From Pseudomonadota bacterium (GTDB lineage: Bacteria > Pseudomonadota > Alphaproteobacteria > Rhizobiales > Aestuariivirgaceae), in assembly GCA_963205315.1 (NCBI GenBank), contig CAUJIO010000056.1:94917-118916 (forward strand): a stretch of 24,000 nt of DNA. The letters are read 5' to 3'. Positions within the stretch are counted from its first letter, which is position 1. Every line of letters begins with the position of its first letter. The notes beneath the pieces are model-generated. The model had not been told where the DNA came from. It was given only the letters and a program-made list of their open reading frames with translations, and did not search any database. This document shows positions 3,450 to 22,704 of the stretch, in pieces. A program made the translations under genes and the position numbers.

Positions 3450-4157
3450 CTAGAGGAAATCAAAGAGATACCTCCTCTTCTTCTGAAGCTTCTCCTGATT
3501 CTGCGGCTTCTCCTGAACAGACTCGGCGCTTGGTGTTTCGGGTGGTGGCGCGGGTAGGACGACGACTTTCGCACCTATTTTTACACGCTCATAGAGATCG
3601 GCAATATCGGCATTGATCAATCTGACGCATCCAGACGAAACCGCCTTGCCAATCGAGTCAGGTTGGTTGGTTCCGTGAATGCGATAGAGCGTGTCGACCG
3701 AACCCTGGTATAAATAGAGCGCGCGCGCGCCCAACGGGTTGTCGGGTCCTCCAGGCATACTGTCGGCCCATTTCGCTGCGAGAGGATCGCGAGCTACCAT
3801 CTCCTTGGGAGGTGTCCAGCGCGGCCACTTAGCCTTTCGACGAACCGTGGCTTCTCCGTTCCATTCGAAGCCTTCCCGTCCCACACCAATACCGTATCGG
3901 ATCGCTGTCCAACCATTGAGAATGAAGTAGAGGTACTTCGCACCTGGATCGACGACGATGGAGCCAGGGACTTCTGCTGTTGCGTACTTAACCTCGGTTC
4001 GCCTGAATCGGGGTTTGAGTTTCAGCACGTCGCCATAGTCAATCGGAAACTGCTCACCATTTGACGATGCGGTAGACCGGATCCCGGCGGCGGCAGTTGC
4101 TGGCAGTAATGTTGCCGCCAGTTGGCTGGCGGATACAATGAGTAGGCGTCTGTTCAT
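3450..4157 (-). CDS. L,D-transpeptidase (YkuD domain), exported
   Basis: Catalytic signature HGTNQPDSIGKAVSSGCVRL. N-terminal signal MNRRLLIVSASQLAATLLPATAAAG. Confidence 0.85.
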   Translation of the reverse strand: MNRRLLIVSASQLAATLLPATAAAGIRSTASSNGEQFPIDYGDVLKLKPRFRRTEVKYATAEVPGSIVVDPGAKYLYFILNGWTAIRYGIGVGREGFEWNGEATVRRKAKWPRWTPPKEMVARDPLAAKWADSMPGGPDNPLGARALYLYQGSVDTLYRIHGTNQPDSIGKAVSSGCVRLINADIADLYERVKIGAKVVVLPAPPPETPSAESVQEKPQNQEKLQKKRRYLFDFL

Positions 4158-4542
4158 GTCAAATTATCGCTTGTTGCAAGTTGGCTTGGAGTTATGGGTG
4201 CTCTTGGATCCTTTGGGATGCGGGAGTCGCGTGGATGGCGAACGGTCACCCTACCGAGTAAGTGCTCAGCAAGAATCGGGGGATTTCTCCTGTGACAGGG
4301 AGACTGCTGGCGGCAGATCGAGCTGGGGAGAGGGGGGCATTGAATCGTCACAGATCTATATGCCGACGTGAATTGAGCTACCGCGCAGACACAGTGCGCG
4401 ATACGGAGCCCGTTTCCCGCGATTGGTACAGTCTCGCGAGCGGAGCGTAAGCCGCCGCCTGAAGCCAAAGAAAACATGAATGACCCGAATGTGAATACCG
4501 CACGGCATTATCTGGCGTGCGGTTCCTCAACGGTCTCGCACG

Positions 4543-4971
4543 TCAGTCGATTTCACTCCTGGTGCGTGGGGGCCGCCGCAGCGGATCGTATCCAGTTGGA
4601 ACAGGTTCTCTCAAAGACACGTTCCAATTCGCTTGTGGATCTTTGCGCATTGCTGGTAAAAAAAGATCCACGAGCATAGCCGAAGGGCTGCAAATTGCAG
4701 AACAGCATGCTGAATCCGACATCTTCTTTGATTGCGACTGGGAAATGTAGGACGTTATGCTCGATTTGATTTTTTGGTCGGCACTTTTTTGAAATGCAGT
4801 GTCTCTCAATCGTAATCTGTCAGCCTGGCTGGACTCTACCCGACAGTCGAATCGGTCTCCTATCTGCGTCGCATGCGCTGTGGAGGAAGAAAATCCAACG
4901 CCGCCTGCGATGGATATCGCCAGCACGACCGCAAGCAGCCTCCGAAATATATTGCCAATCCAACAGTGCAT
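4543..4971 (-). CDS. Hypothetical membrane-anchored/secreted protein with a Cys cluster
   Basis: Hydrophobic N-terminus IFRRLLAVVLAISIAGGVGF, then CCSAIC and a Pro/Arg-rich tail. No family recognised. It sits in an AT-richer stretch and coding status is uncertain. Confidence 0.3.
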   Translation of the reverse strand: MHCWIGNIFRRLLAVVLAISIAGGVGFSSSTAHATQIGDRFDCRVESSQADRLRLRDTAFQKSADQKIKSSITSYISQSQSKKMSDSACCSAICSPSAMLVDLFLPAMRKDPQANWNVSLREPVPTGYDPLRRPPRTRSEID

Positions 4972-5330
4972 TATGGCTGCGTGCCCAAGAGTTGTGGCAG
5001 AATTCGGGCGGGCGGCGGTGGGGTGCTACACTTGGAGTGAGGCGCTTCCCCTTGTTCTCGCCAAGGGACCCAACTCGTTTTTGCACAAGCCCCATGCCAT
5101 CGGGCAGCCTAGAACATTCAAACGCGGAATCGACACGAAATCAGCGGCCAATTCGGCCCAGCGAATAAGCTTCGCAATAAGACAAGTCGGTCGAACCCAG
5201 CGTTTAATGACCATAAGGACAGCTGTATGAATTATTAACCGTGATAGCATCGAATGGTCTTCCGTTGGCCACTTTGGTGTGCGCAGCGTGCTTTGCGCTG
5301 GCAGGCCTAGTCAAAATGCGGGGATATAAG

Positions 5331-6035
5331 ATGGAGATACAATCTAAACCGAAGTTGGAAATCATGCCAGGTGTGCAATTTGGACGCGTGGACGACGTTT
5401 TCAGTCCAGCGTTCTGGGGTGAAATGGCCAAAGCAGCGCAACATGGCGCCTTCGGTGGCATCCAACTCGGCTCTGACCTATGCGAAGAGATTGCTGCATG
5501 CCTACTAGGGGGCTATGGGATGCCGGCAGAGATGGGCCTTGCCGCGTTCAACAGGCTCAAAGAGCGTGCATTGTTGTATTCAGGCGTTATGGCAATAACT
5601 TTGGAGACCGCGCTTTCCGAACCCTTCAATGGCCGAAAGTACCGGTTTCCTCGACAGAAAGCGCGCTTTCTTGCCGCTTCGCTCGACCGCTTGCCGCGAC
5701 TGCAGGAAAGTCAATGCGATTTAACGTTTCGGGATGACCTGGCAACACTTCCTGGGGTGGGCCTAAAAACTGCATCATGGGTCGTTAGAAACCGACGCTA
5801 CTCCGATCATGTCGCAGTTCTTGACGTCCATATAATTCGGGCCGGACGATACATTGGACTGTTCACGCCAAGTATGGATCCGAGCAGACATTATAGAATT
5901 ATGGAAGATCGGTTCATTTCTCTCGCACGGGCACTAGGTGTGCGCGCAGCTGATTTAGACTCGGCGATGTGGCAAGTGATGCGGTCGATCGGATATTTGC
6001 TTCCGGGCACTCCCTATCGAAAACATCTGGTCTGA
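5331..6035 (+). CDS. Ogg2-like HhH-GPD DNA glycosylase (8-oxoguanine glycosylase/lyase family type 2-like)
   Basis: YRFPRQKARFLAASLDRL, then the helix-hairpin-helix LPGVGLKTASWVVRN followed by AVLDVHIIRAG. This has the Ogg2 pattern GxGxK(E/T)AS...LDxH, with Lys and Asp retained. The ATG at 5331 has GGGGA upstream. The ORF-track GTG start at 5241 is an alternative. Confidence 0.7.
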   Translation: MEIQSKPKLEIMPGVQFGRVDDVFSPAFWGEMAKAAQHGAFGGIQLGSDLCEEIAACLLGGYGMPAEMGLAAFNRLKERALLYSGVMAITLETALSEPFNGRKYRFPRQKARFLAASLDRLPRLQESQCDLTFRDDLATLPGVGLKTASWVVRNRRYSDHVAVLDVHIIRAGRYIGLFTPSMDPSRHYRIMEDRFISLARALGVRAADLDSAMWQVMRSIGYLLPGTPYRKHLV

Positions 6036-6060
6036 GTAACCGGCTTCACTGCGTTAGACC

Positions 6061-6735
6061 CTAGGAATATTTCCCAATCGCGATGAGGCCACACGCCATT
6101 GTTCTCTGGGCATCGAGGCCAAGCGCCGGCAATAGTTGCTTTCCATGAGGCCCTAAGGGGCACGCAGCAAGTCCCAGAGCATAAGCTGCCATCGCAGTGA
6201 CCTGAAGGAGTGCGCCGCTGTCTCGCCAAATCAAACTTTCGCAAAATTCATAAGCTGCGTGATACTTCGACACGTCAGCAAGAAGGCAAACAATCATTGC
6301 TTCCGCATCTGGGAGACATTCTCTGGTCACGCTCCGGAGTGCAACCACCTGCTTGGGATCGGCCAAGACCAATTCTTCTAATCTACCGCTTCTGCGAACA
6401 AATCGGAACAGCCGCGCACAACCGGTTGGAGGCCCAAAAACGATATCGATGCCGTGCAAGCCACCAGCTGAAATGGAAGGTGCGTTGTGTCGATCAATGG
6501 CCTGGAAAATCCACTCACTGTGCAACTGCGAAGATAGCTGCAATAATTCAAGTACCTGTCCCACGGATGGACGGGTCATCCACCTCTGACTTCTTCGACT
6601 GCTGCTCACATCGGAGAATCGCGCCGATGGCGCGGGCACGGGCGGTCGCAACGCGATATTCCGTCGAACAGGCCAATCAATAGACTTCCACGAAAGAGCC
6701 TCACCCCGTGGCCGTGGATCATTAATAAGCGCCAT
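6061..6735 (-). CDS. Nitroreductase-fold protein, SagB-type dehydrogenase-like (224 aa)
   Basis: RRSQRW (FMN-phosphate-type RxSxR), PSISAGGLHGIDIV, SKYHAAYEFCESLIWRDSGALLQVTAMAAYALGLAACPLG. The start at 6735 overlaps the upstream QueC-like stop by 14 nt. The alternative start at 6798 would overlap by 77 nt. Confidence 0.65.
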   Translation of the reverse strand: MALINDPRPRGEALSWKSIDWPVRRNIALRPPVPAPSARFSDVSSSRRSQRWMTRPSVGQVLELLQLSSQLHSEWIFQAIDRHNAPSISAGGLHGIDIVFGPPTGCARLFRFVRRSGRLEELVLADPKQVVALRSVTRECLPDAEAMIVCLLADVSKYHAAYEFCESLIWRDSGALLQVTAMAAYALGLAACPLGPHGKQLLPALGLDAQRTMACGLIAIGKYS

Positions 6736-7318
6736 AGCCAAGCGCTTGCATCGTATCGTAGTGCTTAAGACACCCTCTGCATACTCCACAGGCCTCATTG
6801 GCGCGATGACATGAATGCGCCCACGCGAGCACCTCGAACGGGATGCCAGACAGCTTTGTTAGCTCGGTAGCCGTTAAGTGAATTGCGGGCGCTTCCACAG
6901 ACATTCCGCCTTCTTGAATTGAAAACACGCTATTCATTGCCCTAATGAATTCGGGTTTTCCGTCGGCATGTTGATCGTCCGTAGAAAGGCAGCCGATCAG
7001 CAATCGTCTTGCATCTAGAGAGACCGCCTTCATCGCTGCCGCAGTCAAGAGCATCTGATTCCGAAACGGCCACCACTCTGGGATAGGCGCCAAAGCCAAC
7101 GGGGGCTCACCCGCCATGTCACCGGATCCGATTGAAGATAGATCAAAGCGAACAACCTCGTGCTGAATGCCTAAGGCTGTTGCGACAGCGCTCGCTGATC
7201 GTAGTTCCGCTTCTGCTGGCTTCTGGCCGTAGTCAATTGTGATTGCTATGTCGGGCTTCTGCCACCAAGCAATTGCGACCGAGTCCATTCCCCCCGAAAG
7301 TAGCAATGCAGTCCTCAT
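6722..7318 (-). CDS. QueC-like PP-loop ATPase (7-cyano-7-deazaguanine synthase family, divergent, 198 aa)
   Basis: MRTALLLSGGMDSVA (SGGxDS PP-loop), IDYGQK, PFRNQ, DGKPEFIRAM, and the C-terminal zinc motif SCHRANEACGVCRGC (C-x6-C-x2-C-x2-C). ATGA overlap with the upstream gene at 7318-7315. Confidence 0.85.
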   Translation of the reverse strand: MRTALLLSGGMDSVAIAWWQKPDIAITIDYGQKPAEAELRSASAVATALGIQHEVVRFDLSSIGSGDMAGEPPLALAPIPEWWPFRNQMLLTAAAMKAVSLDARRLLIGCLSTDDQHADGKPEFIRAMNSVFSIQEGGMSVEAPAIHLTATELTKLSGIPFEVLAWAHSCHRANEACGVCRGCLKHYDTMQALGYGAY

Positions 7319-8505
7319 GTCCGTTGCGCGACCTTCAGAATTAACGAAGCGAAATCGTCGCTTATGGTGCAGTGAGAGCCCTCCATCATTTTCAGATCTT
7401 CTTCCGGTACAGATTGTGCCAATCCGAATACCGGTTTGCCGAGTGCGCGCGCGTATCCAATTTCAAACACCGTGCCGCTGTCTAATCCATCGATGATGGC
7501 AAACATCGCGTCGCATTCGTGAATTGCTGCGATGTCTTGTGGTGCGACTTCGTGCGCGCTTCCGCGGCCAACATCATGAACCGGAGAGAAAACGTTCAAA
7601 TCCAATTCGATTAGGATACGTCGAGCCTCATCTACCAGCCATCTTTGTCCTATCGAGAAAAATGGACCTGCCAAGTATACCTTGCCGGATGCCTTCTGGA
7701 CTTCCTTGCGTCCTCGATCGTCGAGTTCGACTGGAAGGATCGAGCTTTCGATGAAATTTGCTGTGGCCTTCGAAGCTGCCAGTGTGGCATCGACCGGGGA
7801 TAGTCCGTCGTACATCCAACCCTTAGCGAAAACTGCAACAAACACGTCACCAGAACCAATTGTCTGTGCGGTCTCGACTGAGAAAGCGGGCACTCGGACA
7901 GTACCGGAGATTGACGAGACAATGGCGCCATCGAGTCCACATTTGACCACAACAACTTCGGCCTGCTCATCCTCCCGTAGCTTCGCTGCGGCAGATGAAA
8001 TATCTATCAAATTCGTTAGCGCCTTAACTTCTCCGGAGTTGGCGACTATCGCCAGCCTATTTGCTCGACTTCCATTGGCGCGAAATCCGACGGGCACATA
8101 AGCGGACTGTGGATCGTATACGCACATGTCAGCATCAACGACGGCATCGCCTTCCAGCATTCCGAAGCGGACCACTCTATCTTCCTTGATTTGTAGGGGC
8201 GGCATCCGCTGAATGTTAACTAGATTGGGTGTTATTGTTGGCACGGCAAGGCAGTGAACATAGTCGAAAACCGGATCGGTCGTCCGCTCATGCTTCTCCA
8301 TGAAAAAATCGAAGCCGCCAAGAATTAAGTCAATGTTGTCGTGAAGGTCTGGCCCAACATAAGTATGCAAGACACGCTGGATACCAGTCCCTTGCAACGC
8401 CGCAGCTGCACGCCCAGCGGAGCCGAATACTTGATCGGTCTCTGGCATTGGCCATCTACACCGCTCGCGGTACACGCCGCCGACAATGTGCAATGGTATT
8501 GTCAT
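7315..8505 (-). CDS. Fusion protein: PfkB/ribokinase-like domain plus nucleoside 2-deoxyribosyltransferase-like domain (396 aa)
   Basis: N-terminal part: GSAGRAAAAL, VVVKCGLDGA, TIGSGDVFVAVFAKGW (PfkB signature). C-terminal part: VYLAGPFFSIGQRW...FSPVHD...IIDGLDSGTVFEIGYARALGKPVFG (NDT family). The ATG at 8505 forms an ATGA overlap with the upstream stop. The ORF-track start at 8586 is the alternative. Confidence 0.75.
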   Translation of the reverse strand: MTIPLHIVGGVYRERCRWPMPETDQVFGSAGRAAAALQGTGIQRVLHTYVGPDLHDNIDLILGGFDFFMEKHERTTDPVFDYVHCLAVPTITPNLVNIQRMPPLQIKEDRVVRFGMLEGDAVVDADMCVYDPQSAYVPVGFRANGSRANRLAIVANSGEVKALTNLIDISSAAAKLREDEQAEVVVVKCGLDGAIVSSISGTVRVPAFSVETAQTIGSGDVFVAVFAKGWMYDGLSPVDATLAASKATANFIESSILPVELDDRGRKEVQKASGKVYLAGPFFSIGQRWLVDEARRILIELDLNVFSPVHDVGRGSAHEVAPQDIAAIHECDAMFAIIDGLDSGTVFEIGYARALGKPVFGLAQSVPEEDLKMMEGSHCTISDDFASLILKVAQRT

Positions 8506-8876
8506 AAATTCGATACCCTTACGCGGACAGCTGCGCCTTTGACCGATACGACGTCTGCTTTGTAGTCCACGCCCGCCTCTAAACATTTGATGATCTGAGG
8601 AAGCTTTGCGCTCGTAATGGAACCGGCCGTAAGGCCTGCCGACGTCTGCACGATCACGCGCACAGGTGGCCCCGGCTCCAGCTTGACGGCCAGAACCTCG
8701 CCAGCTTTCAGCGACCCAACGACAGCTGGCACTGGCGAATTGAGGTTGGTATCTTCAATAAGGACGCAAGGATCAGGCCCTCCGGCGCCTCCGGAACCCC
8801 CTCCGCCCGGCGATCTCGGAGCAATAGGCGTTACAGGGTCCGGACGCGAACTTCCCCCACCACTACCTCCAGACAT
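8502..8876 (-). CDS. Small protein (124 aa) with a Gly/Ser/Pro-rich N-terminal tail, unknown function; first gene of the operon
   Basis: ATG at 8876 with AAGGGA upstream (a TTG alternative lies at 8906). Sequence: MSGGSGGGSSRPDPVTPIAPRSPGGGGSGGAGGPDP, then VLAVKLEPGPPVRVIVQTSAG...DYKADVVSVKGAAVRVRVSNL. The stop is coupled (ATGA) to the next gene. Confidence 0.55.
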   Translation of the reverse strand: MSGGSGGGSSRPDPVTPIAPRSPGGGGSGGAGGPDPCVLIEDTNLNSPVPAVVGSLKAGEVLAVKLEPGPPVRVIVQTSAGLTAGSITSAKLPQIIKCLEAGVDYKADVVSVKGAAVRVRVSNL

Positions 8877-8999
8877 GCGAAGTCTTCCCTTTTTCTCAAG
8901 AGTCAATTGAAGTTCGATATGCGCTCAGGAGTCTATTATCACGGGTTTGATGACATCGATATGAGTTCCATTAGGGAGATACGACATAGCTGGGATCGA

Positions 9000-9650
9000 A
9001 GAGTTGATGTTCGCCATCGAAATCCACCTATCACCAAATTGGCAATTGACGTCACCGACAAGAATGGCCGATAATATGCAGCTCAAATAGAGCGTTGTCG
9101 ACGGATCTGCCCTGGGGCGCGAAGCAGAACGGGGAGTTGGCGGGTTCATTGAACGGGGCTCGTTAAGTTCGCGGTGTCGAGCAGCACAACCACTCCTAGC
9201 GCTGTTGGCAGTGGTAGGCATGCACTCTCTCGCAAAGAGGATTTTGGCTCATATACGCTGCAAATTGGTGGTACCTTGACCGGTGTCGGAAGGTATCAGC
9301 GCTGTGGACCAAAAACTTCGCACATCCGGGCTCGTCCCCGAGGGTGTCGTTGGCGATCACGGCACCATCGAAGTGGAGCGCTTGACGTCCAACGTCCCCT
9401 CGGTGGCCAGTGGATGCGTCCGTCTGCCTTACGGGGTTGTCTTTTCCTATCCAGAGCACGTGCTAGCGGCGAGTTACTGGTCCACCGTTCGAAGTTCTGC
9501 GGGTGAACAGCACCCGAATTCAATGATGTGCAGGCTGATTGATAATTCGGACCACGTTTGCGGAGCGAAACCACCATAATACATGTCGACTGCACTCGGC
9601 ACTCTGTTGTAGGCCGCCAGCGCCATTCGCTATCGCACCAAGACTACATC
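9000..9650 (+). pseudogene. IS3-family transposase OrfB (rve/DDE integrase) remnant with an in-frame stop and frameshifts
   Basis: Frame fragments resemble IS3 OrfB landmarks. NPPITKLAIDVTDKNGR*YAAQIERCRRICPGA matches PNxLWxTDITY..G..YLA.VIDL.SRRIVGWA. VVGDHGTIEV matches SDNGPEF. AERNHHNTCRLHSALCCRPPAP matches WRRHYNTVRPHSSLGYRPPAP. The pieces lie in different frames. No inverted repeats were identified. Confidence 0.5.
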
Positions 9651-10138
9651 CACGACATCTCCATGTTCGGCCCTTCCGGCTTGACCAGCATGGGCAAGCC
9701 CATATCACAACTTTGCAAAGCGAATCGAGACAAGATCTGTGTTCGACCTACCACACTGCGAATTATCTATTCCGCCAAATTCTCCTGATCCTCGCGCCAC
9801 CTTAAGTTCTCTTTTTCTTGCAGTTTCCATCTCATTTCCATTGGCCTGGAGTTTCGAGCGACAGGGCGGATCTATCGTTGTCATGTTGTTTTCCACGGGC
9901 TTATACAAGTAGGGATCAAGATTGTCGACGCAGGCGAGGACTTTGTCCTCTCATCACCGGTTTCTCGCGTCAGGGATCGAGCCTGACAGGGCGGAAACGC
10001 CTCGGGCGTTCCGGCAAAGCCGAAGAGCCCGGCCCACCAAGGCGACGCCCAGCTGCCGCTACACGCTGATTAAACCAGGAACAAAAACCGTTAACTTGTG
10101 CTATCTGCAGCATTCCTCATTAGGACGCGGGTCGAATC

Positions 10139-11938
10139 ATGTGGCGTGATAGCGAGAGCGAGCAGGACTTCCTCAACTTTACTGAAGTCGCGGATCAGAT
10201 TGCCACGCTTGCCACCAATCCCGTTCTCCTACCTATCTCAATCGGTGTTTTCGGCACCTGGGGAACCGGCAAGTCCACCGTCCTCAAGCTGGTGGAGGCC
10301 CGGCTGTCAAAGCCCAAGAAGGGAGAAGAGACGAAAGCGAATGGCGAGGATGAGCAGGTCGCGCCGCCGGTCGTCGTGACGTTCGATGCTTGGATGTATC
10401 AGGGTTTTGACGACGCGCGCGCCGCCCTGATGGAGGTAGTTGCCTCGGAGCTGCTGAAGATCGCAGAGGAGAAGAAGACCTTCGTGGACAAGGCGAAGGC
10501 ATTTGCCGGGCGAGTCAACTACTTCCGCGGCCTCAGTATGATCGCGGACTTCGGCATCGGCATGGCGCTCGGCATCCCACCGGGCCTGCTCACCCGTGCT
10601 GGTTCGGCTGTGTCATCAGTCTTCACCGGCAACGTGACCGAAGAACAATATGGCGATCTGAAGAAGGAGGCCGTAGAGGCCAAGAAGGGGCTAACGGAGC
10701 TGATTAAGCCCGCAGAGAAGCGCACGCCACCGAAAGAGATTGAGGCGTTCCGACACGAGTTCGGCGAGCTGCTCAAGGGCCTAAACACCACGCTGGTTCT
10801 CTTTATCGACAATCTCGACCGCTGCCTTCCGGACGTGGCGATCGGCACGCTCGAAGCGATTCGATTGTTCCTGTTCATGCCGCGCACCGCGTTCGTGATT
10901 GCGGCCGACGAAGACATGATCCGGCACTCGGTCGCCAAACACTTCGACGATCCGAACGCTTCTCACGTCCGCGACTACCTCGACAAGGTCATCCAAGTGC
11001 CCTTGCGCGTCCCGCAGGTCGGGGCGGAGGACCTGCGCGCCTATATGTATTCGCTTTTCGTAGGGCTTGCCGCGCCCGACAAGCTCGGTGACGTACAGAC
11101 GCGGCTGATGACTGCCCTGCAAGGAGGCTGGAAGGGCGAGAGCTTCGATAAGGCCGAGATTGCGAAGCTCGCGGGCGATCCCCCGGAACTCCTCGACAAT
11201 CTGGCTATCGCCGATCGCCTGGCGCCGATGATGGCGTGGGCACCGAAGATCCAAGGCAATCCGCGCATTGTGAAGCGCTTATTGAATGCCGTTTCCCTGC
11301 GGCGAGTGCTCGCGGCCAACCGCCAAATGAATGTGGATTTTGCCACTTTGGCGAAGCTCGCGATCTTCGAGCGCTGCACCGACGGACCAGCGACCTTGGC
11401 GCTCTTTCACTTGATCATGGAAGGGAAAGATGCCGAGACGCTGCTGCTGCCCCCTGACAAGGTGAAGGGCAAGACCCCTGAGCTTCCCAAAGACTGGGCG
11501 CCGCACGCGGACTTCATCGAGCAGTGGCGCGCGATGGACCCGCCCTTCGAGAGCGTCGAGAAGCTGCGGCCTGCCGTGTTCCTCAGCCGCGATGTGATGG
11601 CACCCGCACGGTCGCGCTCCGACCTCAGCGAGGCGGCACGCGACGCGATCGAAGCCTTGCTCAAAGTCGACAACGTGAACTCGCCTGTTGGCAAGAAGAT
11701 CGTTGAGGATCTCACGCCCGCGGACCGTCGCGCCGCGATGTCAGGGCTGGTTGAAGCGACACGCGACGCAGACTGGTCAACGGTCGTACCCGGCGTCCAC
11801 GGGGCGCTGCTTATTGCCGAAGCCTCACCGGAAGCCAAAACGGAAATGAAGGCCTTTGTGGCTGGCCTCCAAACCGGTGAGATGGATAAAGGTATCCGTT
11901 TCCTGCTCCGCCGCGTGGGCATGATCGAGGGTAAGTAA
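10139..11938 (+). CDS. qatA: KAP-family P-loop NTPase, QatA of QatABCD
   Basis: Walker A in ISIGVFGTWGTGKSTVLK, Walker B-like TLVLFIDNLDRC. 599 aa. The TAA stop shares one nt with the next ATG. Confidence 0.85.
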   Translation: MWRDSESEQDFLNFTEVADQIATLATNPVLLPISIGVFGTWGTGKSTVLKLVEARLSKPKKGEETKANGEDEQVAPPVVVTFDAWMYQGFDDARAALMEVVASELLKIAEEKKTFVDKAKAFAGRVNYFRGLSMIADFGIGMALGIPPGLLTRAGSAVSSVFTGNVTEEQYGDLKKEAVEAKKGLTELIKPAEKRTPPKEIEAFRHEFGELLKGLNTTLVLFIDNLDRCLPDVAIGTLEAIRLFLFMPRTAFVIAADEDMIRHSVAKHFDDPNASHVRDYLDKVIQVPLRVPQVGAEDLRAYMYSLFVGLAAPDKLGDVQTRLMTALQGGWKGESFDKAEIAKLAGDPPELLDNLAIADRLAPMMAWAPKIQGNPRIVKRLLNAVSLRRVLAANRQMNVDFATLAKLAIFERCTDGPATLALFHLIMEGKDAETLLLPPDKVKGKTPELPKDWAPHADFIEQWRAMDPPFESVEKLRPAVFLSRDVMAPARSRSDLSEAARDAIEALLKVDNVNSPVGKKIVEDLTPADRRAAMSGLVEATRDADWSTVVPGVHGALLIAEASPEAKTEMKAFVAGLQTGEMDKGIRFLLRRVGMIEGK

Positions 11939-12783
11939 TGGGGACATCTCGACCGAAGCCGGACGCGCCACCTGCATCGCCCCTAATTCCGCCTTGGGCG
12001 GATCAAGACCCGGTGCCACCTGCGCCACCGCCCGAGCCCTTGCCCGAGGACCCGGTGCCGGAGCTTGAAGAGCCCGGACCTCCGGCCGACGAGGGTGAAG
12101 AGGACGCTGATTTGGAGGTGGCGGAGCCGAGGCGGTATGCCAGTTTCCGCACGGCCCTGAGTCGCTTCGCAGGGTCGGGCGAACGCGGCGACGCGCGAAC
12201 AGCGCTTGGCCGCTGGGCCAGCCGGTCGGTCGGCGGTGGCGCGGCAGGAGCGCGGCGGACGGCGCGCGCAGCGCGGACCGGCGGTGCTGCGCTTGCAGGC
12301 TTGGCACGCGCTGGGGCGGGCCGAGCTCCCGAAGCGGGCGTGCTCGATATCCGTGCGCTCGCTGGCCAGCCAGTCGAGGTTGCGATCGGCGCGATCGTCG
12401 ATGCATTCATGGCGCCTGGCATTCTTGACGAGGTCGCGGCGCGGCTCGCGATGGAGCAAGCCTTGGCAGAGGCGCTCGGCGGAGCTGATACTTTCGATCC
12501 CGTGGCGGTGGACGCCAATGCCGTACGAGTTGCAACCTTGGCGTTCGTGGCCGAGTTGGTCTTCGTGCAGGTCGCCGGCGATGCAGGACGCTCATTGGCG
12601 ACAGTTGGCCCCGTGGCGGCGGCGCTGCGCGAAGCAGAAATCCGATCACTGGTCCGCGAGGTCGTGAACTTGGTGGGAACGCCGATTCTTGTCGCAGCGG
12701 GTGCAGTGCTGAGCGAGCAACGGATGTCGGCCCTGGTGTCTCAGCTTGTGCGCGAGACGCTGGAGGAGGTAGCGACGTGGTGA
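11938..12783 (+). CDS. qatB: QatB-position protein (281 aa), Pro/Glu-rich N-terminus, Ala/Arg-rich core
   Basis: The frame is delimited exactly by overlaps with qatA (TAATG) and qatC (GTG 12777 / TGA 12781-12783). There is no recognisable enzymatic motif. The assignment is by position in the operon. Confidence 0.65.
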   Translation: MGTSRPKPDAPPASPLIPPWADQDPVPPAPPPEPLPEDPVPELEEPGPPADEGEEDADLEVAEPRRYASFRTALSRFAGSGERGDARTALGRWASRSVGGGAAGARRTARAARTGGAALAGLARAGAGRAPEAGVLDIRALAGQPVEVAIGAIVDAFMAPGILDEVAARLAMEQALAEALGGADTFDPVAVDANAVRVATLAFVAELVFVQVAGDAGRSLATVGPVAAALREAEIRSLVREVVNLVGTPILVAAGAVLSEQRMSALVSQLVRETLEEVATW

Positions 12784-14048
12784 CTCGCACACCTACGCGC
12801 GTCCTTGCCAGCCCAAATGCTGGTCGCGCTGCCGCGGCTCTCGCTCATGGCGATATCGGAGTGGCCCTATATAACATCGGTCGCCCCGAACTGGCCGGAT
12901 TAGGCGCGGGCCTCAATCAAACCGCGGCCCGCTTGCCCCGACCACCTTCTGCACGGGCATGGGACTTCCTTTCCATCGCGCTCGCGGTCCATGCTGCAGA
13001 TCGGTTCGTTGTGCGGCGAAACGCACAAGACTCCTGGACGCGAATGATCGCGCTTGAGGTCGAGCTCATGGAGCCCGAGCCTTGGGCTGGGCAAGCGGCG
13101 GCGCTAGCAGACGCTCTGCGTTTCCTGTCGAGCGACATCTGGTACTTACGCTTCCGCGCCGGGGGCGCACCACCACCGACATTTCAGGACAGCCTATCGG
13201 ATCGCGATTGCGCCTGCTTGTTCTCGGGCGGCCTGGACAGCCTGATCGGGGCTATCGACCTCACGGCGCAGGGCCGGCGGCCGCTGCTCGTCAGCCAAGC
13301 CTCTCCCAAGGAAGGGCCGGTGCAGGCGGAGCTCGCGGACCAGATCGGTTCGGCGGACCATCGCTTCGAGGGCCGCGCCTCGGAGCGGTGGCGCCAGCCC
13401 TATGAACCATCCTCGCGGGCTCGATCGGTGCTTTTCATCGGTTACGGAGCTGTGGTGGCCTCCACGCTCGGTCCGGTCAACGGCCGTGCCGAACTTGTCG
13501 TGCCCGAAAATGGTCTCATCTCGATCAATGCGCCACTCACCCGCCGTCATATTGGAAGTCTAAGCACGCGAACGACGCATCCGCACTTCATCGGCTCGCT
13601 TCAGCGGGTGCTTGATGCGGTTGGGCTCGGCGTGCGGCTGAACAACCCTTATGGCTTTAAGACCAAAGGCGAAATGCTCGCTGAGTGTCAGGACCGTGTG
13701 GTCGAGCAGTTAGCGGCGTCTTCCTACTCATGCGGCAAAGGCAAGCGCCTCAATCAACATTGCGGCCGTTGCGTGCCGTGCCTGATCCGCCGGGCGTCGT
13801 TTCACGCGGCCGGTGTGGCGGACGGCACTAGCTATTGGGCTGATGATCTGTCGACCCATGTAGCGAACGAGGATGTCGCAGCCGCCCGGTATGCGGCGGC
13901 GAGCCTGCGGCACCGTGACGTGGCGCGATGGGCTGCCCAAGCCGGGCCACTTCCAAGTGATCCTGTTCAGCGGAACGGCTACGTTGATGTTGTGCGGCGA
14001 GGGACAGAGGAACTGCGGGCGTTCTTCGGTACAATCGCCTGGCCGTGA
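12777..14048 (+). CDS. qatC: QueC-like PP-loop ATPase with a long N-terminal extension, QatC
   Basis: CACLFSGGLDSLIGAID (PP-loop) about 150 aa into the protein. Zinc motif SCGKGKRLNQHCGRCVPCLIR (C-x10-C-x2-C-x2-C). GTG start. Confidence 0.85.
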   Translation: MVTRTPTRVLASPNAGRAAAALAHGDIGVALYNIGRPELAGLGAGLNQTAARLPRPPSARAWDFLSIALAVHAADRFVVRRNAQDSWTRMIALEVELMEPEPWAGQAAALADALRFLSSDIWYLRFRAGGAPPPTFQDSLSDRDCACLFSGGLDSLIGAIDLTAQGRRPLLVSQASPKEGPVQAELADQIGSADHRFEGRASERWRQPYEPSSRARSVLFIGYGAVVASTLGPVNGRAELVVPENGLISINAPLTRRHIGSLSTRTTHPHFIGSLQRVLDAVGLGVRLNNPYGFKTKGEMLAECQDRVVEQLAASSYSCGKGKRLNQHCGRCVPCLIRRASFHAAGVADGTSYWADDLSTHVANEDVAAARYAAASLRHRDVARWAAQAGPLPSDPVQRNGYVDVVRRGTEELRAFFGTIAWP

Positions 14049-14776
14049 TTGACCTGCATTGTCACCTCGACCTTTACCCTGATCCCCGCGCCGTTGTCGC
14101 GGAGTGTGTCGCACGGCGGATTTATGTGCTGTCGGTCACGACCGTTCCAAGCGCCTTCGAGGGAACGGCGGCACTTGTCCTCGCCCAGAGCCGGATTAGA
14201 ACGGCGCTGGGCCTGCATCCGGAGCTTGCTGCCGCGAGGGCGCGCGAGTTGCCCCTTTTCGAGCGTTTGCTCCCGCAGACTCGCTATGTAGGCGAGGTCG
14301 GCCTGGACGGCTCGCGAGACCACCGTGGCAGCCTCGACGCGCAGCGTGGCGTGTTCGCCGACGTTCTGCGGCTCTGCGCGCGCGCCGGTGGCAAAGCATT
14401 ATCGCTGCATAGTCGAGGAGCGACCGGGATCATCCTCGACGCGCTTGGGGCGGAACCCACGGCCGGGAAGGCTATCCTTCACTGGTATGTCGGCACGCCG
14501 AAACAGGTGGCGCGAGCGGCTGAAATGGGCTGCTGGTTTTCGGTCGGGCCGACTATGCTCACGAGCGAGCGCGGCCGCGCGGCTGTGTTAGCGATGCCAA
14601 AGGATCGAGTCGTGCCCGAATCGGACGGACCCTTCGGGCTCGTCGAGGGGCGTGCAGCTCATCCGTGGGATGCTTGGTCCGTGACGTCCAAGCTGGCCGA
14701 ACTCTGGCGTGAGCAAGAGGATCGCGTCGCAGCACAACTCCGCTCGAATTTTAGAACGCTGAGCGGGGGCGCTTAG
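14045..14776 (+). CDS. qatD: TatD-family metal-dependent hydrolase/DNase, QatD
   Basis: MIDLHCHLDLYPDP (HxH metal site), GEVGLDG, SLHSRGA, PESDGPF. GTGA overlap with the qatC stop. Confidence 0.85.
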   Translation: MIDLHCHLDLYPDPRAVVAECVARRIYVLSVTTVPSAFEGTAALVLAQSRIRTALGLHPELAAARARELPLFERLLPQTRYVGEVGLDGSRDHRGSLDAQRGVFADVLRLCARAGGKALSLHSRGATGIILDALGAEPTAGKAILHWYVGTPKQVARAAEMGCWFSVGPTMLTSERGRAAVLAMPKDRVVPESDGPFGLVEGRAAHPWDAWSVTSKLAELWREQEDRVAAQLRSNFRTLSGGA

Positions 14777-15045: not shown

Positions 15046-16515
15046 TCAGTGCCCAAGCAAACTGAGTATAGTTTCGCCTGATGGGACGCGAGGGACATCG
15101 TTTATGCCAAAATCTGCTTCGAAATAGGACCAGCGCCTCTCAGCAATCCAACCAAGAAATTGCGTGAGTGCGTCAACCTGATCGTCGTGCCTGGCGTGCG
15201 GAAAGGCGAGATACTCTTCCTGAAAATCAATCTGCCAATGCGCTCCTCTAGGCAGGTGCAGTATGGCTCCTTCCAGAAGCGGGGTGATGGCTGCTGCTCG
15301 GGTGTACTTATCTTTTTCAGGTTTGATGCCTCTAAGCCCTCGGACTTGGGATCGGAGATACTGAATCAACGACGTGCCTGAAGCTTGTTCTTCGATCAGT
15401 ACGGCCGTTGCTTGCCATTTGTCAGCCTCTCGGATGATGCGGTCTTTCAGCGGCGCGAATTCCAAGCGCTCGCGCACCACGTCGAGGAGATAGACTTCAT
15501 TCTTGCCTCGAATGAGAAAGGTAAGCCCCACTGAATAGTCGTTGGTTTCCTTGATTTTGTAAGCGGTATCCCAACTCTGGACGATTTGATCGCCCTGTTG
15601 GCGCTGTGGGACCGCATTGACATAGCGCAGCCATGCCTGTTTTAGCAGGTTACCCTCGGCAGGAATGGGATTCTGCAGGTATTGGGCGCTGAACGCCGCC
15701 GAGCCGATGTCGGATTTGGTGGACGCCAGATAGGAGAGTGGCAACCGTTCAGGATGAAGGGACTGGCCACCGCGCCAGGTGAATGTTCGATTTCTTCCAA
15801 GCGCTATCGTCCTGTCTTCGGGCGCAATGGCTGGCAGCGACAGGTGCTTCCAGCCTCCTTGAGCGAGGAGAATGCCAGAGAGATCGTCCATGTGCAGCCG
15901 CTGCATTACGATCAAAATCGTGCCGAGTGTCGGATTGTCGAGCCGAGACAGAAGGGCGGACCGGAACCAGTCATTGACCCGTTCGCGGCTGGTCTTGGAA
16001 TCGGTTTCGCTGGCATTGAGGGGGTCGTCGACGATGATGATGTCACCACCACGTCCGGTGAGACTGCCACCTACCGAGGTTGTCAGTCGAAACCCGCCGG
16101 CGGTGGTTGAGGTTTCTGCCTCCGTGTCCTTGTCGATGTGCAAACCAGGAAAGATGCGCTTGTACCAGGCTGCGTTCACGACCCGTCGAAAATCGAAGGC
16201 GAGCTTGCCTGCTATTGCGTCGGAATAGCTCGCGCAGATGATCTTGGCGGATGGATTGTGGCCGAGAAGGAAGGCTGGAAGTGCCACGGAGAAGATGATC
16301 GACTTCAGTGAACGGGGCGGGGCATTGACGATTAGCCGAGGACAGTGCTGATCGACAATCGCCTGTGCATTGAGGCACAGAAGTTCGATATGCCAATTTT
16401 CGAGAAATGGAGTTGTAGGGGAGAGCGTCTCAAAGACCTTTATGACAAAGGAGTATAGGTCAGTTCGAACAAGTGCATCGCGTTCGCGTGGGATTGGTTT
16501 TGCCATTTCAGTCAC
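15046..16515 (-). CDS. Phage terminase large subunit-like protein
   Basis: ATPase motifs LIVNAPPRSLKS (Walker A-like) and GDIIIVDDP (Walker B), followed by an RNaseH-like C-terminal half. GTG start at 16515 overlaps the upstream stop by 8 nt. Confidence 0.8.
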   Translation of the reverse strand: MTEMAKPIPRERDALVRTDLYSFVIKVFETLSPTTPFLENWHIELLCLNAQAIVDQHCPRLIVNAPPRSLKSIIFSVALPAFLLGHNPSAKIICASYSDAIAGKLAFDFRRVVNAAWYKRIFPGLHIDKDTEAETSTTAGGFRLTTSVGGSLTGRGGDIIIVDDPLNASETDSKTSRERVNDWFRSALLSRLDNPTLGTILIVMQRLHMDDLSGILLAQGGWKHLSLPAIAPEDRTIALGRNRTFTWRGGQSLHPERLPLSYLASTKSDIGSAAFSAQYLQNPIPAEGNLLKQAWLRYVNAVPQRQQGDQIVQSWDTAYKIKETNDYSVGLTFLIRGKNEVYLLDVVRERLEFAPLKDRIIREADKWQATAVLIEEQASGTSLIQYLRSQVRGLRGIKPEKDKYTRAAAITPLLEGAILHLPRGAHWQIDFQEEYLAFPHARHDDQVDALTQFLGWIAERRWSYFEADFGINDVPRVPSGETILSLLGH

Positions 16516-16897
16516 TCTCTGTCTTTGGTTGGTTGCGGCGGAGGAAGCTGTCGATGATGAGTTGGTCTGCCTCGCTCAAGGTTTCCTGCTCGTGAGCTCC
16601 CTCATCGGGCTGTTGGAGTTTCATGACCATATCGAACAAGGTCTTGGCGGCACGACCGTCTTTTTGGAGGGCGCGCTGAAATAGGCTGAGCAGCAACGCC
16701 TCTTGCCTGCTGGCCTTGCGCTTCTCACCGTTGACGGTGATCTCAACCTTGCCGCCCATTAAATTCGCGAGGTCGGTCTTGAGGTTCGAGGTGCCCTTTG
16801 GCCGACCCTTGGGGTTCCCCGATTGGCCAGCGCGAAACTGACGGTGCTTCGGTGGCCGGCCTGGTCCAACGCCTGATGCGGAATCATCGGCGCTCAT
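16508..16897 (-). CDS. DUF5681-type protein (small-terminase position)
   Basis: The GQSGNPKGRPKG motif is typical of this family, which sits upstream of terminase large subunits in alphaproteobacterial prophage-like regions. ATGA overlap with the methyltransferase stop. Confidence 0.65.
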   Translation of the reverse strand: MSADDSASGVGPGRPPKHRQFRAGQSGNPKGRPKGTSNLKTDLANLMGGKVEITVNGEKRKASRQEALLLSLFQRALQKDGRAAKTLFDMVMKLQQPDEGAHEQETLSEADQLIIDSFLRRNQPKTESD

Positions 16898-18276: not shown

Positions 18277-18422
18277 CGAGGTACCCGTTATAAATGTGGG
18301 GACCCGCTTAAGTGCAGTTCCCATACTATTACGGCGCAACTAACTCTGTAACAGAGCGGAATTTCCCACTGGCTCGGAAGTCGTCGGTCGGCGCCTTTGT
18401 CGGTAAGTTTTGCGATGACGGA

Positions 18423-22657: not shown

Positions 22658-22704
22658 GCCGGACGGGGAGGCTTCCGGGCCTCCCCCACTACCGAGGGAA
22701 TAGC

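Follow-up and report, generated by a model that had tools for sequence, protein, structure and literature searches.

A conserved five-gene cassette with a QueC-like enzyme that most likely tags the N terminus of a small protein

The question raised by this locus was why a QueC-like gene should be coupled to genes for a kinase/deoxyribosyltransferase fusion, a SagB-like flavoprotein, a Gly-rich small protein and a DNA glycosylase, and on what such an enzyme might act. The window analyzed was a stretch of 24,000 nucleotides (contig CAUJIO010000056.1 of assembly GCA_963205315.1, positions 94,917 to 118,916), in which four overlapping minus-strand genes converge with an Ogg2-like gene between positions 5331 and 8906. 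The set is a conserved, mobile cassette and is most likely a third QueC-family system that modifies the N terminus of a partner protein, probably for antiphage defense. The function is inferred from sequence, predicted folds and genomic context. The QueC clade and its PfkB-NDT neighbor were catalogued in 2026 as "Cluster 4" and assigned to purine salvage (Libby et al., PMC13329287), so that the description of the set as undescribed in the initial annotation is only partly true, although the system itself is undescribed.

Gene organization and domain assignments

The gene structure given in the initial annotation was confirmed. The small protein is encoded by the ORF at 8502-8906 (−), and its likely start is the ATG at 8876-8874, which lies 7 nt after an AGGGAAG ribosome-binding site at 8890-8884 (−) and gives a product of 124 residues (8502-8876). 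The same 124-aa protein was obtained from independent database gene calls. No promoter match above chance was found upstream. The PfkB/NDT fusion (7315-8505, −, 396 aa) overlaps the small gene through an ATGA at 8505-8502, the QueC-like gene (6722-7318, −, 198 aa) overlaps the fusion gene through an ATGA at 7318-7315, and the ATG of the SagB-like gene (6061-6735, −, 224 aa) at 6735 lies 14 nt before the end of the QueC-like stop codon at 6722. The Ogg-like gene (5331-6035, +, 234 aa), the start of which agrees with database gene calls, converges on the 3′ end of the operon with 25 bp (6036-6060) between the stops.

The domain assignments were supported by HMM or fold comparisons. The QueC-like protein matched PF06508 (2.2e-25), while its TIGR00364 score of 79 bits was below the 150-bit equivalog cutoff. 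It contains the SGGMDS loop (in LLLSGGMDS) and the motif C170-H-x5-C177-x2-C180-x-G-C183-x-K, and these match the Cluster 4 signature. The fusion protein matched PF00294 (PfkB, 1.5e-12) and PF05014 (NDT, 3.4e-19); residues ~1 to 265 are a ribokinase-family kinase domain and residues ~272 to 396 a nucleoside 2-deoxyribosyltransferase domain, with GSGDVF and YLAGPFF...DSGTVFEIGYARALGKPV motifs. In 16 diverse homologues the kinase N156xxE159 and G217-S-G-D220 motifs and the NDT Y277-L-A-x-P-F-F and D342-x-G-T-x-x-E348 motifs were invariant, and the NDT domain aligned with the solved NDTs 6evs and 1s2d, including the catalytic Glu. More than 2,462 homologues of the fusion were found. The Ogg-like protein matched PF22175 (7.7e-13) and the solved Ogg2 enzymes 3n0u, 3knt and 3fhf, and the helix-hairpin-helix (HhH) Lys (GVGLKTASW) and the Asp (VLDVH) were conserved across 73 sequences.

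The SagB-like protein, which carries RRSQR...SAGGLHG...GLAACPLG, had no Pfam hit and only a subthreshold NCBIfam hit (TIGR03605, 2.9e-5). Its assignment was confirmed by a profile search, which matched ThcOx/CyaGox at 4.8e-10 and BmdC at 5e-6, and by fold: the AF2 model (pLDDT 80, pTM 0.82) gave ThcOx (2e-9, TMq 0.72-0.75), BmdC and McbC as the best Foldseek matches. The protein is closest to azoline oxidases. The RRSxR motif is conserved and the invariant Y162 aligns with the Tyr of the azoline-oxidase Lys-Tyr motif, although the Lys of that motif is not conserved.

Conservation, mobility and genomic context

The five genes form a real unit. All five were found in 74 of 80 species-level genomes across Proteobacteria, Myxococcota, Acidobacteriota, Planctomycetota, Abditibacteriota and others, with recurrence of the same gene order far beyond chance. 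The Ogg-like gene was found in 76 of 80 loci, and in the 74 five-gene loci it was always adjacent, convergent downstream in 43 and codirectional upstream in 31. The flanks vary and are often defense or mobile genes. The fusion gene is on 37 plasmids, 19 of them conjugative, including haloarchaeal plasmids, and it is present in 10 of 5,426 Escherichia coli genomes, inside an integrase island. No full-length copy occurs in 50,697 phage records, and only 5 were found in 2.9 million IMG/VR contigs.

No PADLOC-DB v2 model matched any of the five proteins except the generic CBASS QueC model, which matched the QueC-like protein. The homologous clusters were not embedded with queD, queE, folE or tgt, and the only recurrent neighbors in the 80 loci were an XRE-type HTH, a Dam-like methylase and a dGTPase-like gene. 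The exclusion of Qat and type IV CBASS in the initial annotation also holds, as no KAP ATPase, TatD, CD-NTase or TGT belongs to the unit.

A defense role was inferred from context only, although this association was not measured against a genome-wide baseline. Within the window, QatABCD at 10139-14776 and a terminase/DUF5681/ParB-methylase remnant at 15046-18339 were confirmed, and the GC content was 0.52-0.56 across 5001-9000 against 0.58-0.72 in qatABCD. The IS3 remnant proposed in the initial annotation was not confirmed, as no transposase domain was found in the ORFs of 4150-5240 or 8907-10138. Immediate neighbors in other genomes include OLD/AriA/GajA-like ATPases, GajB, a type I restriction enzyme, Mrr, SIR2, Upx and antiphage dGTPase, and in Moraxella a dGTPase gene sits inside the operon. 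The cassette itself has no recognizable effector such as a nuclease, pore, TIR or Sir2.

The small protein as the likely substrate

Of the candidate targets named in the initial annotation (a deoxynucleoside, the nucleotide pool, DNA or a protein), a protein is now the best supported, and the Gly-rich small protein is the likely substrate. It starts MSGGSGGGSS, and residues 1 to 36 are a disordered Gly/Ser/Pro-rich tail followed by the invariant Cys37 and a predicted HIRAN-like beta domain (residues 37 to 124). In the AF2 model residues 1 to 35 had pLDDT below 50, while the domain was above 90, and Foldseek matched 3k2y and the HLTF HIRAN domain (E 7e-4 to 2e-2, prob 1.00, TM 0.55-0.74). The HIRAN assignment rests on this predicted fold only, as no Pfam hit appeared even at E <= 10. 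Homologues were present in 80 of 80 loci, of which 75 start MSG, 3 MSS, 1 MSN and 1 MTG (the eightieth, locus L079, is a truncated ORF with no readable start), and the junction Cys was kept in 80 of 80. The family has 1,354 representatives at 50% identity. A minority start MGGSGG, which equals the N terminus of the type IV CBASS substrate CdnD (MGGSGGS), while QatB, which is also NDG-modified (PMC13639016), starts MGTS.

H117 and D119 of the QueC-like enzyme align with Y129/D131 of Bacillus subtilis QueC and Y115/D117 of Cap9, the positions of the stacking Tyr and the base-reading Asp, which QatC has lost. Both residues were at least 90% conserved in 77 sequences. The SagB-like gene was found to track residue 2 of the small protein: its presence went with Ser or Thr at this position in 80 of 80 loci, and its absence with Gly2 in 6, Cys2 in 1 and Ser2 in 5 loci (Fisher p = 9e-8, not corrected for phylogeny). 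All 7 Gly2 or Cys2 variants lack the gene, but since Ser2 persists in 5 loci without it, the link runs one way only.

Proposed pathway and alternatives

From these data we hypothesized that Met1 is removed to expose the alpha-amine of Ser2 (or Gly2), and that the QueC-like enzyme uses ATP to activate 7-carboxy-7-deazaguanine (CDG) from the host queuosine pathway and joins it to that amine, as Cap9 does on CdnD and QatC on QatB. CDG as the substrate is inferred from two conserved residues. In Ser/Thr-type systems the acyl-Ser would be cyclodehydrated, the intramolecular equivalent of the second ATP-dependent step of QueC (amide to nitrile), and the oxazoline then oxidized to an oxazole by the SagB-like flavoprotein, although no YcaO-type cyclodehydratase is present. 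The NDT domain would take the place of the TGT-like Cap10, either docking the tethered base or placing 2-deoxyribose on its free N9, and the fused kinase would phosphorylate the sugar, so that the tag could become a nucleotide. The HIRAN-like domain would direct the conjugate to DNA 3′ ends, and the Ogg-like glycosylase would reverse or limit the reaction, the role proposed for Cap11. The substitution of NDT for TGT is supported by the absence of a TGT from the cassette and by a related Neorhizobium locus, where a homologue of the fusion with no detectable NDT domain sits beside a TIR-TGT fusion, an Ogg, a Cap9-like QueC and a TIR protein starting MGGGGGG. It is also consistent with the remark of Wassarman et al. 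that NDG leaves N9 free for "subsequent addition of ribose." The probability of this overall reading is estimated at roughly 0.55.

Less favored alternatives are a small-molecule pathway and a DNA-directed system. In a small-molecule pathway, the operon would salvage purines or deoxynucleosides or make a free 7-deazapurine 2′-deoxynucleotide, with the base processed by the QueC-like enzyme, placed on deoxyribose by NDT, phosphorylated by PfkB and tailored by a redox step of the SagB-like protein; the product would serve DNA modification or act as a toxic nucleoside, with the Ogg-like enzyme providing self-protection. This agrees with the assignment of Libby et al., the only published opinion on this clade, which was based on the PfkB-NDT neighbor, with the normal action of NDT and PfkB enzymes on free nucleosides and sugars, with their intact catalytic residues and with the retained base-recognition residues of the QueC-like enzyme. 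It was nevertheless considered unlikely, as it explains neither a nonenzymatic protein present in 80 of 80 loci, whose only strictly conserved sequence apart from its domain is an N-terminal MSG/MGGSGG like the known protein substrates of Cap9 and QatC, nor the SagB/residue-2 link. Furthermore, no other salvage or queuosine genes recur nearby, and the sporadic, plasmid- or island-borne distribution is unusual for salvage. A DNA-directed modification or restriction-like system, in which the QueC-like, NDT and kinase activities supply or exchange a modified base and self and foreign DNA are told apart as in the Dpd or restriction-modification logic, was judged slightly less likely still. It is supported by the catalytic Lys and Asp of the Ogg-like enzyme, by the HIRAN-like fold and by a D12 adenine methylase that is co-operonic with ogg in 10 of 80 loci and in E. 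coli and Citrobacter. However, this methylase is absent from most loci, including the window, no DpdA/TGT-like DNA transglycosylase and no nuclease belong to the unit, NDTs are not known to act on polymeric DNA, and neither the conserved N-terminal tail nor the SagB/residue-2 link is explained.

Two further readings were deemed improbable. In abasic-site capture, the Ogg-like enzyme, which looks like a bifunctional glycosylase/lyase, would make an abasic site or 3′ unsaturated aldehyde, the HIRAN-like domain would hold the 3′ end, the N-terminal Ser, Cys or Gly amine would condense with the aldehyde to an oxazolidine or thiazolidine, presumably as for Cys2 of SRAP/HMCES, and the SagB-like enzyme would oxidize the ring to give a stable DNA-protein cross-link. 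While the identity of residue 2 (Ser/Thr, Cys or Gly) and the tie between the SagB-like gene and Ser/Thr2 fit this scheme, it leaves the QueC-like ATPase and the NDT-kinase, the two most tightly coupled partners, without a role, the G-type tails equal the known deazaguanylation substrate motif, and the three-gene haloarchaeal and Moraxella variants lack Ogg altogether. A RiPP-like cluster, in which the Gly/Ser-rich part of a precursor is converted to azoles, as in microcin B17, by a noncanonical ATP-dependent cyclodehydratase (QueC-like) and a SagB-type dehydrogenase, was the least likely. The Gly/Ser-rich tail and the SagB-type oxidase are consistent with it, but no protease, exporter or immunity gene is present, NDT-kinase and Ogg have no place in such a pathway, and the Gly2 variants lack the oxidase. 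A well-folded, conserved C-terminal domain is also atypical of precursors, and only the first three residues of the tail are conserved, the rest varying in sequence and in length (0 to 50 aa in the alignment, median 33).

Gene organization and conservation of the cassette

An ORF listing and direct reading of the sequence confirmed the initial annotation's description of four chained minus-strand genes met by a convergent plus-strand gene. The small gene was assigned to 8502-8876 (−) because, while the mechanical ORF runs to a TTG at 8906, an ATG at 8876-8874 sits 7 nt after AGGGAAG and gives a protein of 124 aa. It is followed by a 396-aa gene at 7315-8505 (−), whose ATG overlaps the stop of the small gene (ATGA, 8505-8502), by a 198-aa gene at 6722-7318 (−) (ATGA, 7318-7315), and by a 224-aa gene at 6061-6735 (−), whose ATG lies 14 nt before the end of the previous gene. 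The 234-aa gene at 5331-6035 (+) converges on them with 25 bp between the stops. Independent gene calls on four metagenome contigs that carry the identical locus give the same 124-, 396-, 198-, and 234-aa products; two of the four also give the 224-aa product, while the other two call a shorter 172-aa product for that gene. The GC content is 0.52-0.56 across the cassette and 0.58-0.72 in the neighboring qatABCD. A scan for promoters and terminators gave nothing above the shuffled expectation, and no Rfam match to a riboswitch (such as preQ1) or other RNA appeared at gathering score in the window or at E ≤ 1 in 8700-10200.

The 198-aa protein matches Pfam QueC, PF06508 (2.2e-25; 89.9 bits against a cutoff of 22), with the PP-loop LLLSGGMDS at residues 5 to 13, but it scores well below the NCBIfam equivalog cutoff for the canonical preQ0 synthase (TIGR00364, 79.4 against 150.3 bits). 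Of the canonical YPDC and YxQxHxxE motifs, YPDC is replaced by H-A-D-G. The 396-aa protein is a fusion of PfkB, PF00294 (1.5e-12; 47.9 bits against 25.8, although only the C-terminal third of the model aligns) and a nucleoside 2-deoxyribosyltransferase (NDT) domain, PF05014 (3.4e-19; 69.5 bits against 28.8). The kinase residues N156, E159, and G217-S-G-D220 and the NDT residue E348 in DxGTxxE are invariant, and the NDT domain aligns with solved NDTs, including the catalytic Glu, while phmmer of the kinase domain found no PDB match at E ≤ 1e-3. The 234-aa protein matches Ogg-HhH (7.7e-13; 48.8 bits against 27) and aligns with solved Ogg2 enzymes, and the Lys in GVGLKTASW and the Asp in VLDVH are conserved. 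It is not an equivalog of the housekeeping enzyme (PRK01229, 58 against 183). The 224-aa protein has no Pfam hit, including to nitroreductase, and only a subthreshold SagB hit (TIGR03605, 2.9e-5; 23.6 bits against 78.4). However, a profile of it and 11 homologues found the cyanobactin azoline oxidase ThcOx/CyaGox (4.8e-10) and the bacillamide thiazoline oxidase BmdC (5e-6) as the best solved relatives. This was supported by its AlphaFold model (pLDDT 80, pTM 0.82), which Foldseek matched best to ThcOx (E 2e-9, TMq 0.72-0.75) and then to BmdC and McbC, ahead of most ordinary nitroreductases. PADLOC-DB v2 recognized nothing among the five proteins except for its generic CBASS QueC model on the QueC-like protein (9.4e-16), and no system or candidate (PDC) model matched.

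The five genes are one unit. The fusion protein has more than 2,462 homologues of nearly constant length, and a scan of one genome per species found 305 genomes that encode it, from which the best 80 loci were fetched. Iterated HMM searches with the five window proteins against all ORFs of those loci found the small protein in 80 of 80, the QueC-like protein in 78, the SagB-like protein in 76, and the Ogg-like protein in 76, with all five present in 74. Three of the six exceptions are contig ends, while the other three are real variants: L047 lacks Ogg, L048 lacks SagB, and L078 is degraded. The order small, fusion, QueC, SagB is invariant, with overlapping genes, and the fusion and QueC-like genes are adjacent in 78 of 80 loci. 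The Ogg-like gene is convergent downstream in 43 loci, as in the window, and immediately upstream and codirectional in 31, and it therefore belongs to the unit rather than being a chance neighbor. The hosts span Alpha-, Beta-, and Gammaproteobacteria, Myxococcota, Acidobacteriota, Planctomycetota, Abditibacteriota, and others. The closest relatives are Roseiarcus and Methylocystis.

Outside the five genes, the neighborhoods differ. Clustering of all flanking ORFs gave only three recurrent families, namely, a small XRE-type HTH (15 loci), a Dam-like D12 methylase co-operonic with ogg (10 loci), and a dGTPase-like protein (7 loci), and no queD, queE, folE, or tgt recurs. Among 144 immediate neighbors, PADLOC and Pfam found OLD/AriA/GajA/PtuA-type ATPases (5), GajB, a type I restriction enzyme, Mrr, SIR2, and Upx, as well as conjugation genes. 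Our rough lower bound, not set against a genome-wide baseline, is about 20 of 144 neighbors with a defense-model hit. The fusion gene is on 37 plasmids, 19 of them predicted to be conjugative, including P. aeruginosa megaplasmids and three haloarchaeal plasmids. On a Citrobacter plasmid, the cassette lies between a Gabija-like ATPase/helicase pair and an annotated anti-phage dGTPase. This plasmid copy matches, at 97.6% identity or more over at least 80% of its length, the chromosomes of 10 of 5,426 complete E. coli genomes, in one of which it sits in an integrase-bearing island next to that dGTPase. A phage origin was rejected, as no full-length copy exists in 50,697 phage records and only five exist in 2.9 million IMG/VR contigs. 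This is the distribution expected of a mobile accessory, defense-type module and not of a salvage pathway.

The small protein and its partner enzymes

The small protein has no Pfam match at E ≤ 0.01, and nothing relevant appeared at E ≤ 10 across 21 family members, yet its family is large (1,354 representatives at 50% identity). In the 80 loci, the aligned N terminus is MSG in 75, MSS in 3, MSN in 1, and MTG in 1; the eightieth locus, L079, has a truncated ORF with no readable start. This is followed by a tail that varies in sequence and length (median 33 residues, up to 50) and is about 72% Gly/Ser/Pro/Asp/Asn/Thr, by a Cys conserved in 80 of 80, and by a conserved domain of about 85 residues. 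Among 148 diverse representatives, as annotated by their sources, 101 start MSG, 5 MSS, 2 MTG, 13 MGG, and 1 MCG, and most of the rest are overextended starts that contain these motifs internally. The G-type starts read MGGSGGG. For comparison, the published deazaguanylation substrate CdnD starts MGGSGGSFGSGFDPR and is modified on Gly2, while QatB, including the one in this window, starts MGTS, and an NDG-modified QatB N-terminal peptide has been detected (PMC13639016).

AlphaFold predicted residues 1 to 35 to be disordered and residues 36 to 124 to be folded with pLDDT above 90. Foldseek matched that domain to L. plantarum lp_0118 (3k2y) and to the HLTF HIRAN domain (4xzg, 4s0n, 6kcs, and 5bnh) with E values of 7e-4 to 2e-2, a probability of 1.00, and TM of 0.51-0.74, whereas the next-best folds had probabilities of 0.66 or lower. 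The assignment rests on a predicted model and is by fold only, since no HIRAN hit was obtained for any of the 21 family members, even at E ≤ 10. In HLTF, the HIRAN domain is known to bind free 3'-OH ends of single-stranded DNA, which suggests how a tag could be aimed at DNA. Two Cys residues stand out, Cys37 (8768-8766, −) at the junction of tail and domain, which is the one conserved in 80 of 80 sequences, and Cys98 (8585-8583, −) in the helix of the HIRAN-like domain, which is nearly invariant (at least 90% in a 21-sequence alignment). These are not a described HIRAN feature.

The QueC-like enzyme carries the signature given for PF06508 "Cluster 4" by Libby, de Crecy-Lagard, Hutinet et al. 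(Biochem J 2026, PMC13329287), namely, CH(x)5CxxCxGCxK, SGGxDS, and YGQ(x)6E, read here as C170-H-RANEA-C177-GV-C180-R-G-C183-L-K185 and Y30-G-Q-KPAEAE-L. It also has the PfkB-NDT neighbor found in 89% of Cluster 4 neighborhoods. Alignment to B. subtilis QueC and to Cap9 placed H117 and D119 at the positions of the Tyr that stacks on the 7-deazaguanine and the Asp that reads its Watson-Crick edge (roles taken from PMC13279940). Both are at least 90% conserved in 77 family members, whereas QatC has replaced both with Thr. The enzyme therefore looks built to bind a guanine-like base, as Cap9 does, although Tyr is replaced by His and the protein is only about 30% identical to a Cap9-like QueC.

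The SagB-like gene was found to track residue 2 of the small protein. Variants lacking this gene were collected from plasmids, IMG/VR, and metagenomes. Wherever the gene is present, residue 2 is Ser or Thr (80 of 80 evaluable loci), and where it is absent, residue 2 is Gly in six loci (two haloarchaeal plasmids and the loci L093 and L174 to L176), Cys in one (Halorientalis), and Ser in five (Fisher's exact P = 9e-8, without correction for shared ancestry). Inside one SagB-less clade, two near-identical proteins differ at exactly this position (MGGSGSGG against MSGSGSGG). A strict two-way rule was rejected because of the five SagB-less loci with Ser2. The rule therefore runs one way: the oxidase needs a hydroxyl-bearing residue 2, whereas the rest of the system works with Gly or Ser. 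Azoline oxidases act on rings made from Ser, Thr, or Cys. The family keeps the FMN-type RRSxR motif (R47-R48-S49 are conserved) and an invariant Tyr, Y162, which aligns with the Tyr of ThcOx WKY and BmdC PKY. The adjacent Lys, however, is present in only 15 of 73 sequences, with a Lys or Arg lying five residues earlier in 52 of 73, and no YcaO or McbBD-type cyclodehydratase is present in the cassette. We infer, but have not shown, that after the base is joined to Ser2, the N-acyl-Ser is cyclodehydrated and then oxidized to an oxazole; the cyclodehydration would be chemically the intramolecular version of the second ATP-dependent step of canonical QueC, amide to nitrile.

All catalytic motifs of both domains of the fusion are invariant. 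Since an NDT typically exchanges the base on a 2-deoxyribose through a covalent sugar-enzyme intermediate, it is a mechanistic counterpart of the TGT-family enzymes that acts on free deoxynucleosides. The idea that NDT stands in for the TGT-like Cap10 is supported by a related locus, L090, on a Neorhizobium petrolearium plasmid (NZ_CP123001.1, locus coordinates 5007-10824). Here a homologue of the fusion with an intact kinase but no detectable NDT domain lies in a row with a TIR-TGT fusion, an Ogg-HhH (30% identical to that of the window), a Cap9-like QueC, a ThsB-type TIR protein that starts MGGGGGGNW, a SLATT two-TM effector, and a second ThsB TIR, with more TIR and TPR-S genes upstream. This locus looks like a TIR-based counterpart of type IV CBASS. 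This kinase family thus travels with QueC-type tagging modules in an unmistakably immune setting, and where a TGT domain is present, the NDT domain has decayed.

Proposed function and relation to known systems

The most economical reading, to which we assign a probability of about 0.55, is a third QueC-family N-terminal protein modification system, probably defensive. In this reading, the substrate is the small tailed protein with a predicted HIRAN-like fold, the QueC-like enzyme is the ligase, the SagB-like enzyme is a tailoring oxidase for Ser-type substrates, the NDT-kinase is either the reader of the tethered base or the enzyme that turns it into a nucleotide, and the Ogg-like enzyme is an eraser or regulator. 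A more elaborate scheme, in which the cassette would build a protein-linked nucleotide, is not excluded but is considered unlikely. The QueC-like enzyme would acylate Ser2 with 7-carboxy-7-deazaguanine and, in a second ATP-dependent step, cyclodehydrate the acyl-Ser; the SagB-like flavoprotein would aromatize the ring to an oxazole; the NDT domain would put 2-deoxyribose on the free N9 of the tethered base; and the fused kinase would phosphorylate the sugar. The HIRAN-like domain would then carry the conjugate to 3' ends of invading DNA, where it would block replication, with the Ogg-like glycosylase as the eraser. This would be a new posttranslational modification (an oxazole-linked deazaguanine deoxynucleotide), a new job for the nitrile-forming half-reaction of QueC, and the first enzyme-supported case of the addition of ribose to N9 that was only speculated for type IV CBASS.

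The rival readings considered were a small-molecule deazapurine or salvage pathway, a DNA modification system, abasic-site capture, and a RiPP cluster. The strongest of these, small-molecule metabolism, is in line with the purine salvage proposed for Cluster 4 (PMC13329287), but it fails to explain the universally present small protein, its N-terminal motif, and the link between residue 2 and the oxidase. That Cluster 4 entry is the only prior mention of the cassette, as full-text searches found no paper that describes it. The Cluster 4 study listed a nitroreductase in 23% of neighborhoods, consistent with Pfam missing most of these divergent proteins, but did not mention the small protein, its N-terminal motif, or the Ogg gene and reported neither the five-gene unit nor a defense or protein modification role. 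The present reading would correct a published annotation for a widespread cassette (more than 2,400 fusion-protein clusters, bacteria and haloarchaea, and conjugative plasmids) with natural copies in E. coli and Citrobacter.

Protein deazaguanylation was discovered only in 2025, and two systems are known. The accessory module of type IV CBASS, in which Cap9 (QueC-like), Cap10 (TGT-like), and Cap11 (OGG-like) act on the CD-NTase CdnD (Wassarman et al. 2025), likewise has a minimal QueC-like enzyme of about 190 to 200 aa that keeps the base-reading Asp, a partner protein with a flexible Gly-rich N-terminal tail (the G-type variants here start MGGSGG, like the MGGSGGS of CdnD), an OGG-family accessory gene, a base-exchange-type enzyme as the second partner, and a location in defense islands. 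However, no CD-NTase was found in the window or as a recurrent neighbor in the 80 loci, there is no cyclic-nucleotide effector, and no TGT is in the cassette, a TGT appearing only in the distinct locus L090. Instead, the presumed substrate is a small protein with a HIRAN-like fold and no enzymatic domain, an NDT domain fused to a PfkB kinase replaces Cap10, residue 2 is usually Ser rather than Gly, a SagB-type oxidase is added, and OGG was found in 76 of 80 loci, against about one-third of type IV CBASS operons. In QatABCD, a QueC-family enzyme, QatC, is also paired with a nonenzymatic partner, QatB, whose conserved N terminus sits on a long disordered tail and is essential for defense (PMC13279940, PMC13639016). 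QatC, however, is about 420 aa with N- and C-terminal extensions and has lost the Tyr/Asp base recognition pair, whereas the 198-aa enzyme here keeps the Asp and has no QatC hit. QatB is all-helical, whereas the small protein is a predicted beta domain that starts MSG and has no QatB hit, and no KAP ATPase or TatD nuclease belongs to the cassette.

Relative to the azoline dehydrogenases (SagB, McbC, ThcOx, and BmdC), the presumed substrate here also differs, being a single N-terminal residue of a folded protein and not a peptide core. The Dpd 7-deazaguanine DNA modification system similarly uses queuosine-pathway chemistry in a mobile island linked to conflict with phages, but no DpdA/TGT-like transglycosylase, DpdB/C, or preQ0 synthesis genes are present here.

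Variant loci and neighboring elements

A three-gene variant (substrate, fusion, and QueC-like) without SagB or Ogg was found on haloarchaeal plasmids of Halorubrum, Haloarcula, and Halorientalis. The substrate protein has two tandem HIRAN-like domains, and the N termini are MGGGSGG, MGGGGSS, and MCGGGS. In Halorubrum, the acidic tail is about 190 residues long, and the copy sits among TIR and DUF262 genes. On the Moraxella osloensis plasmid pNP7-2 (4611-8270 of the locus), an annotated anti-phage dGTPase gene overlaps the end of the QueC-like gene in the place where the SagB-like gene normally sits. In an IMG/VR provirus contig (6851-11324), a second small-protein gene (starting MSGMNPLKP) and a second fusion gene follow directly after the QueC-like gene, and one ligase may therefore serve two substrate/partner pairs. 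The Dam-like D12 adenine methylase of 10 of the 80 loci (for example, L035, L040, and L060), also seen in the loci L085 (10243-10911) and L170 (13611-14147), is cotranscribed with the Ogg-like gene, overlaps it by 4 nt, and matches the PADLOC PD-Lambda-5_B model. It is absent from the window.

In the window, a complete QatABCD system lies beside the cassette at 10139-14776 (+), with PADLOC E values of 6e-174 for QatA, 9e-35 for QatB, 1e-99 for QatC, and 2e-87 for QatD, and two different QueC-family systems therefore sit side by side. The MGTS start of this QatB is the motif shown in the literature to be essential. The idea that the cassette is an accessory of this Qat system was rejected, as the cassette occurs without Qat in the 80 genome loci and has a different GC content. 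In the 1.2-kb stretch between the cassette and qatA (8907-10138), no ORF has a Pfam hit, and the stretch has no Rfam match and no match in the plasmid collection. The IS3 remnant reported in the initial annotation was not confirmed, as no transposase domain was found in the ORFs of this stretch or of 4150-5240, whereas the prophage remnant was found at 15046-18339 (−) and comprises a large terminase (Terminase_6C), DUF5681, and a ParB_N-N6/N4 DNA methylase fusion. An HTH_3-cupin regulator at 20908-21567 (−) and an AAA ATPase with PADLOC mad3, mad8, AriA, and PtuA-like hits at 22654-23484 (+) may belong to a further defense element.
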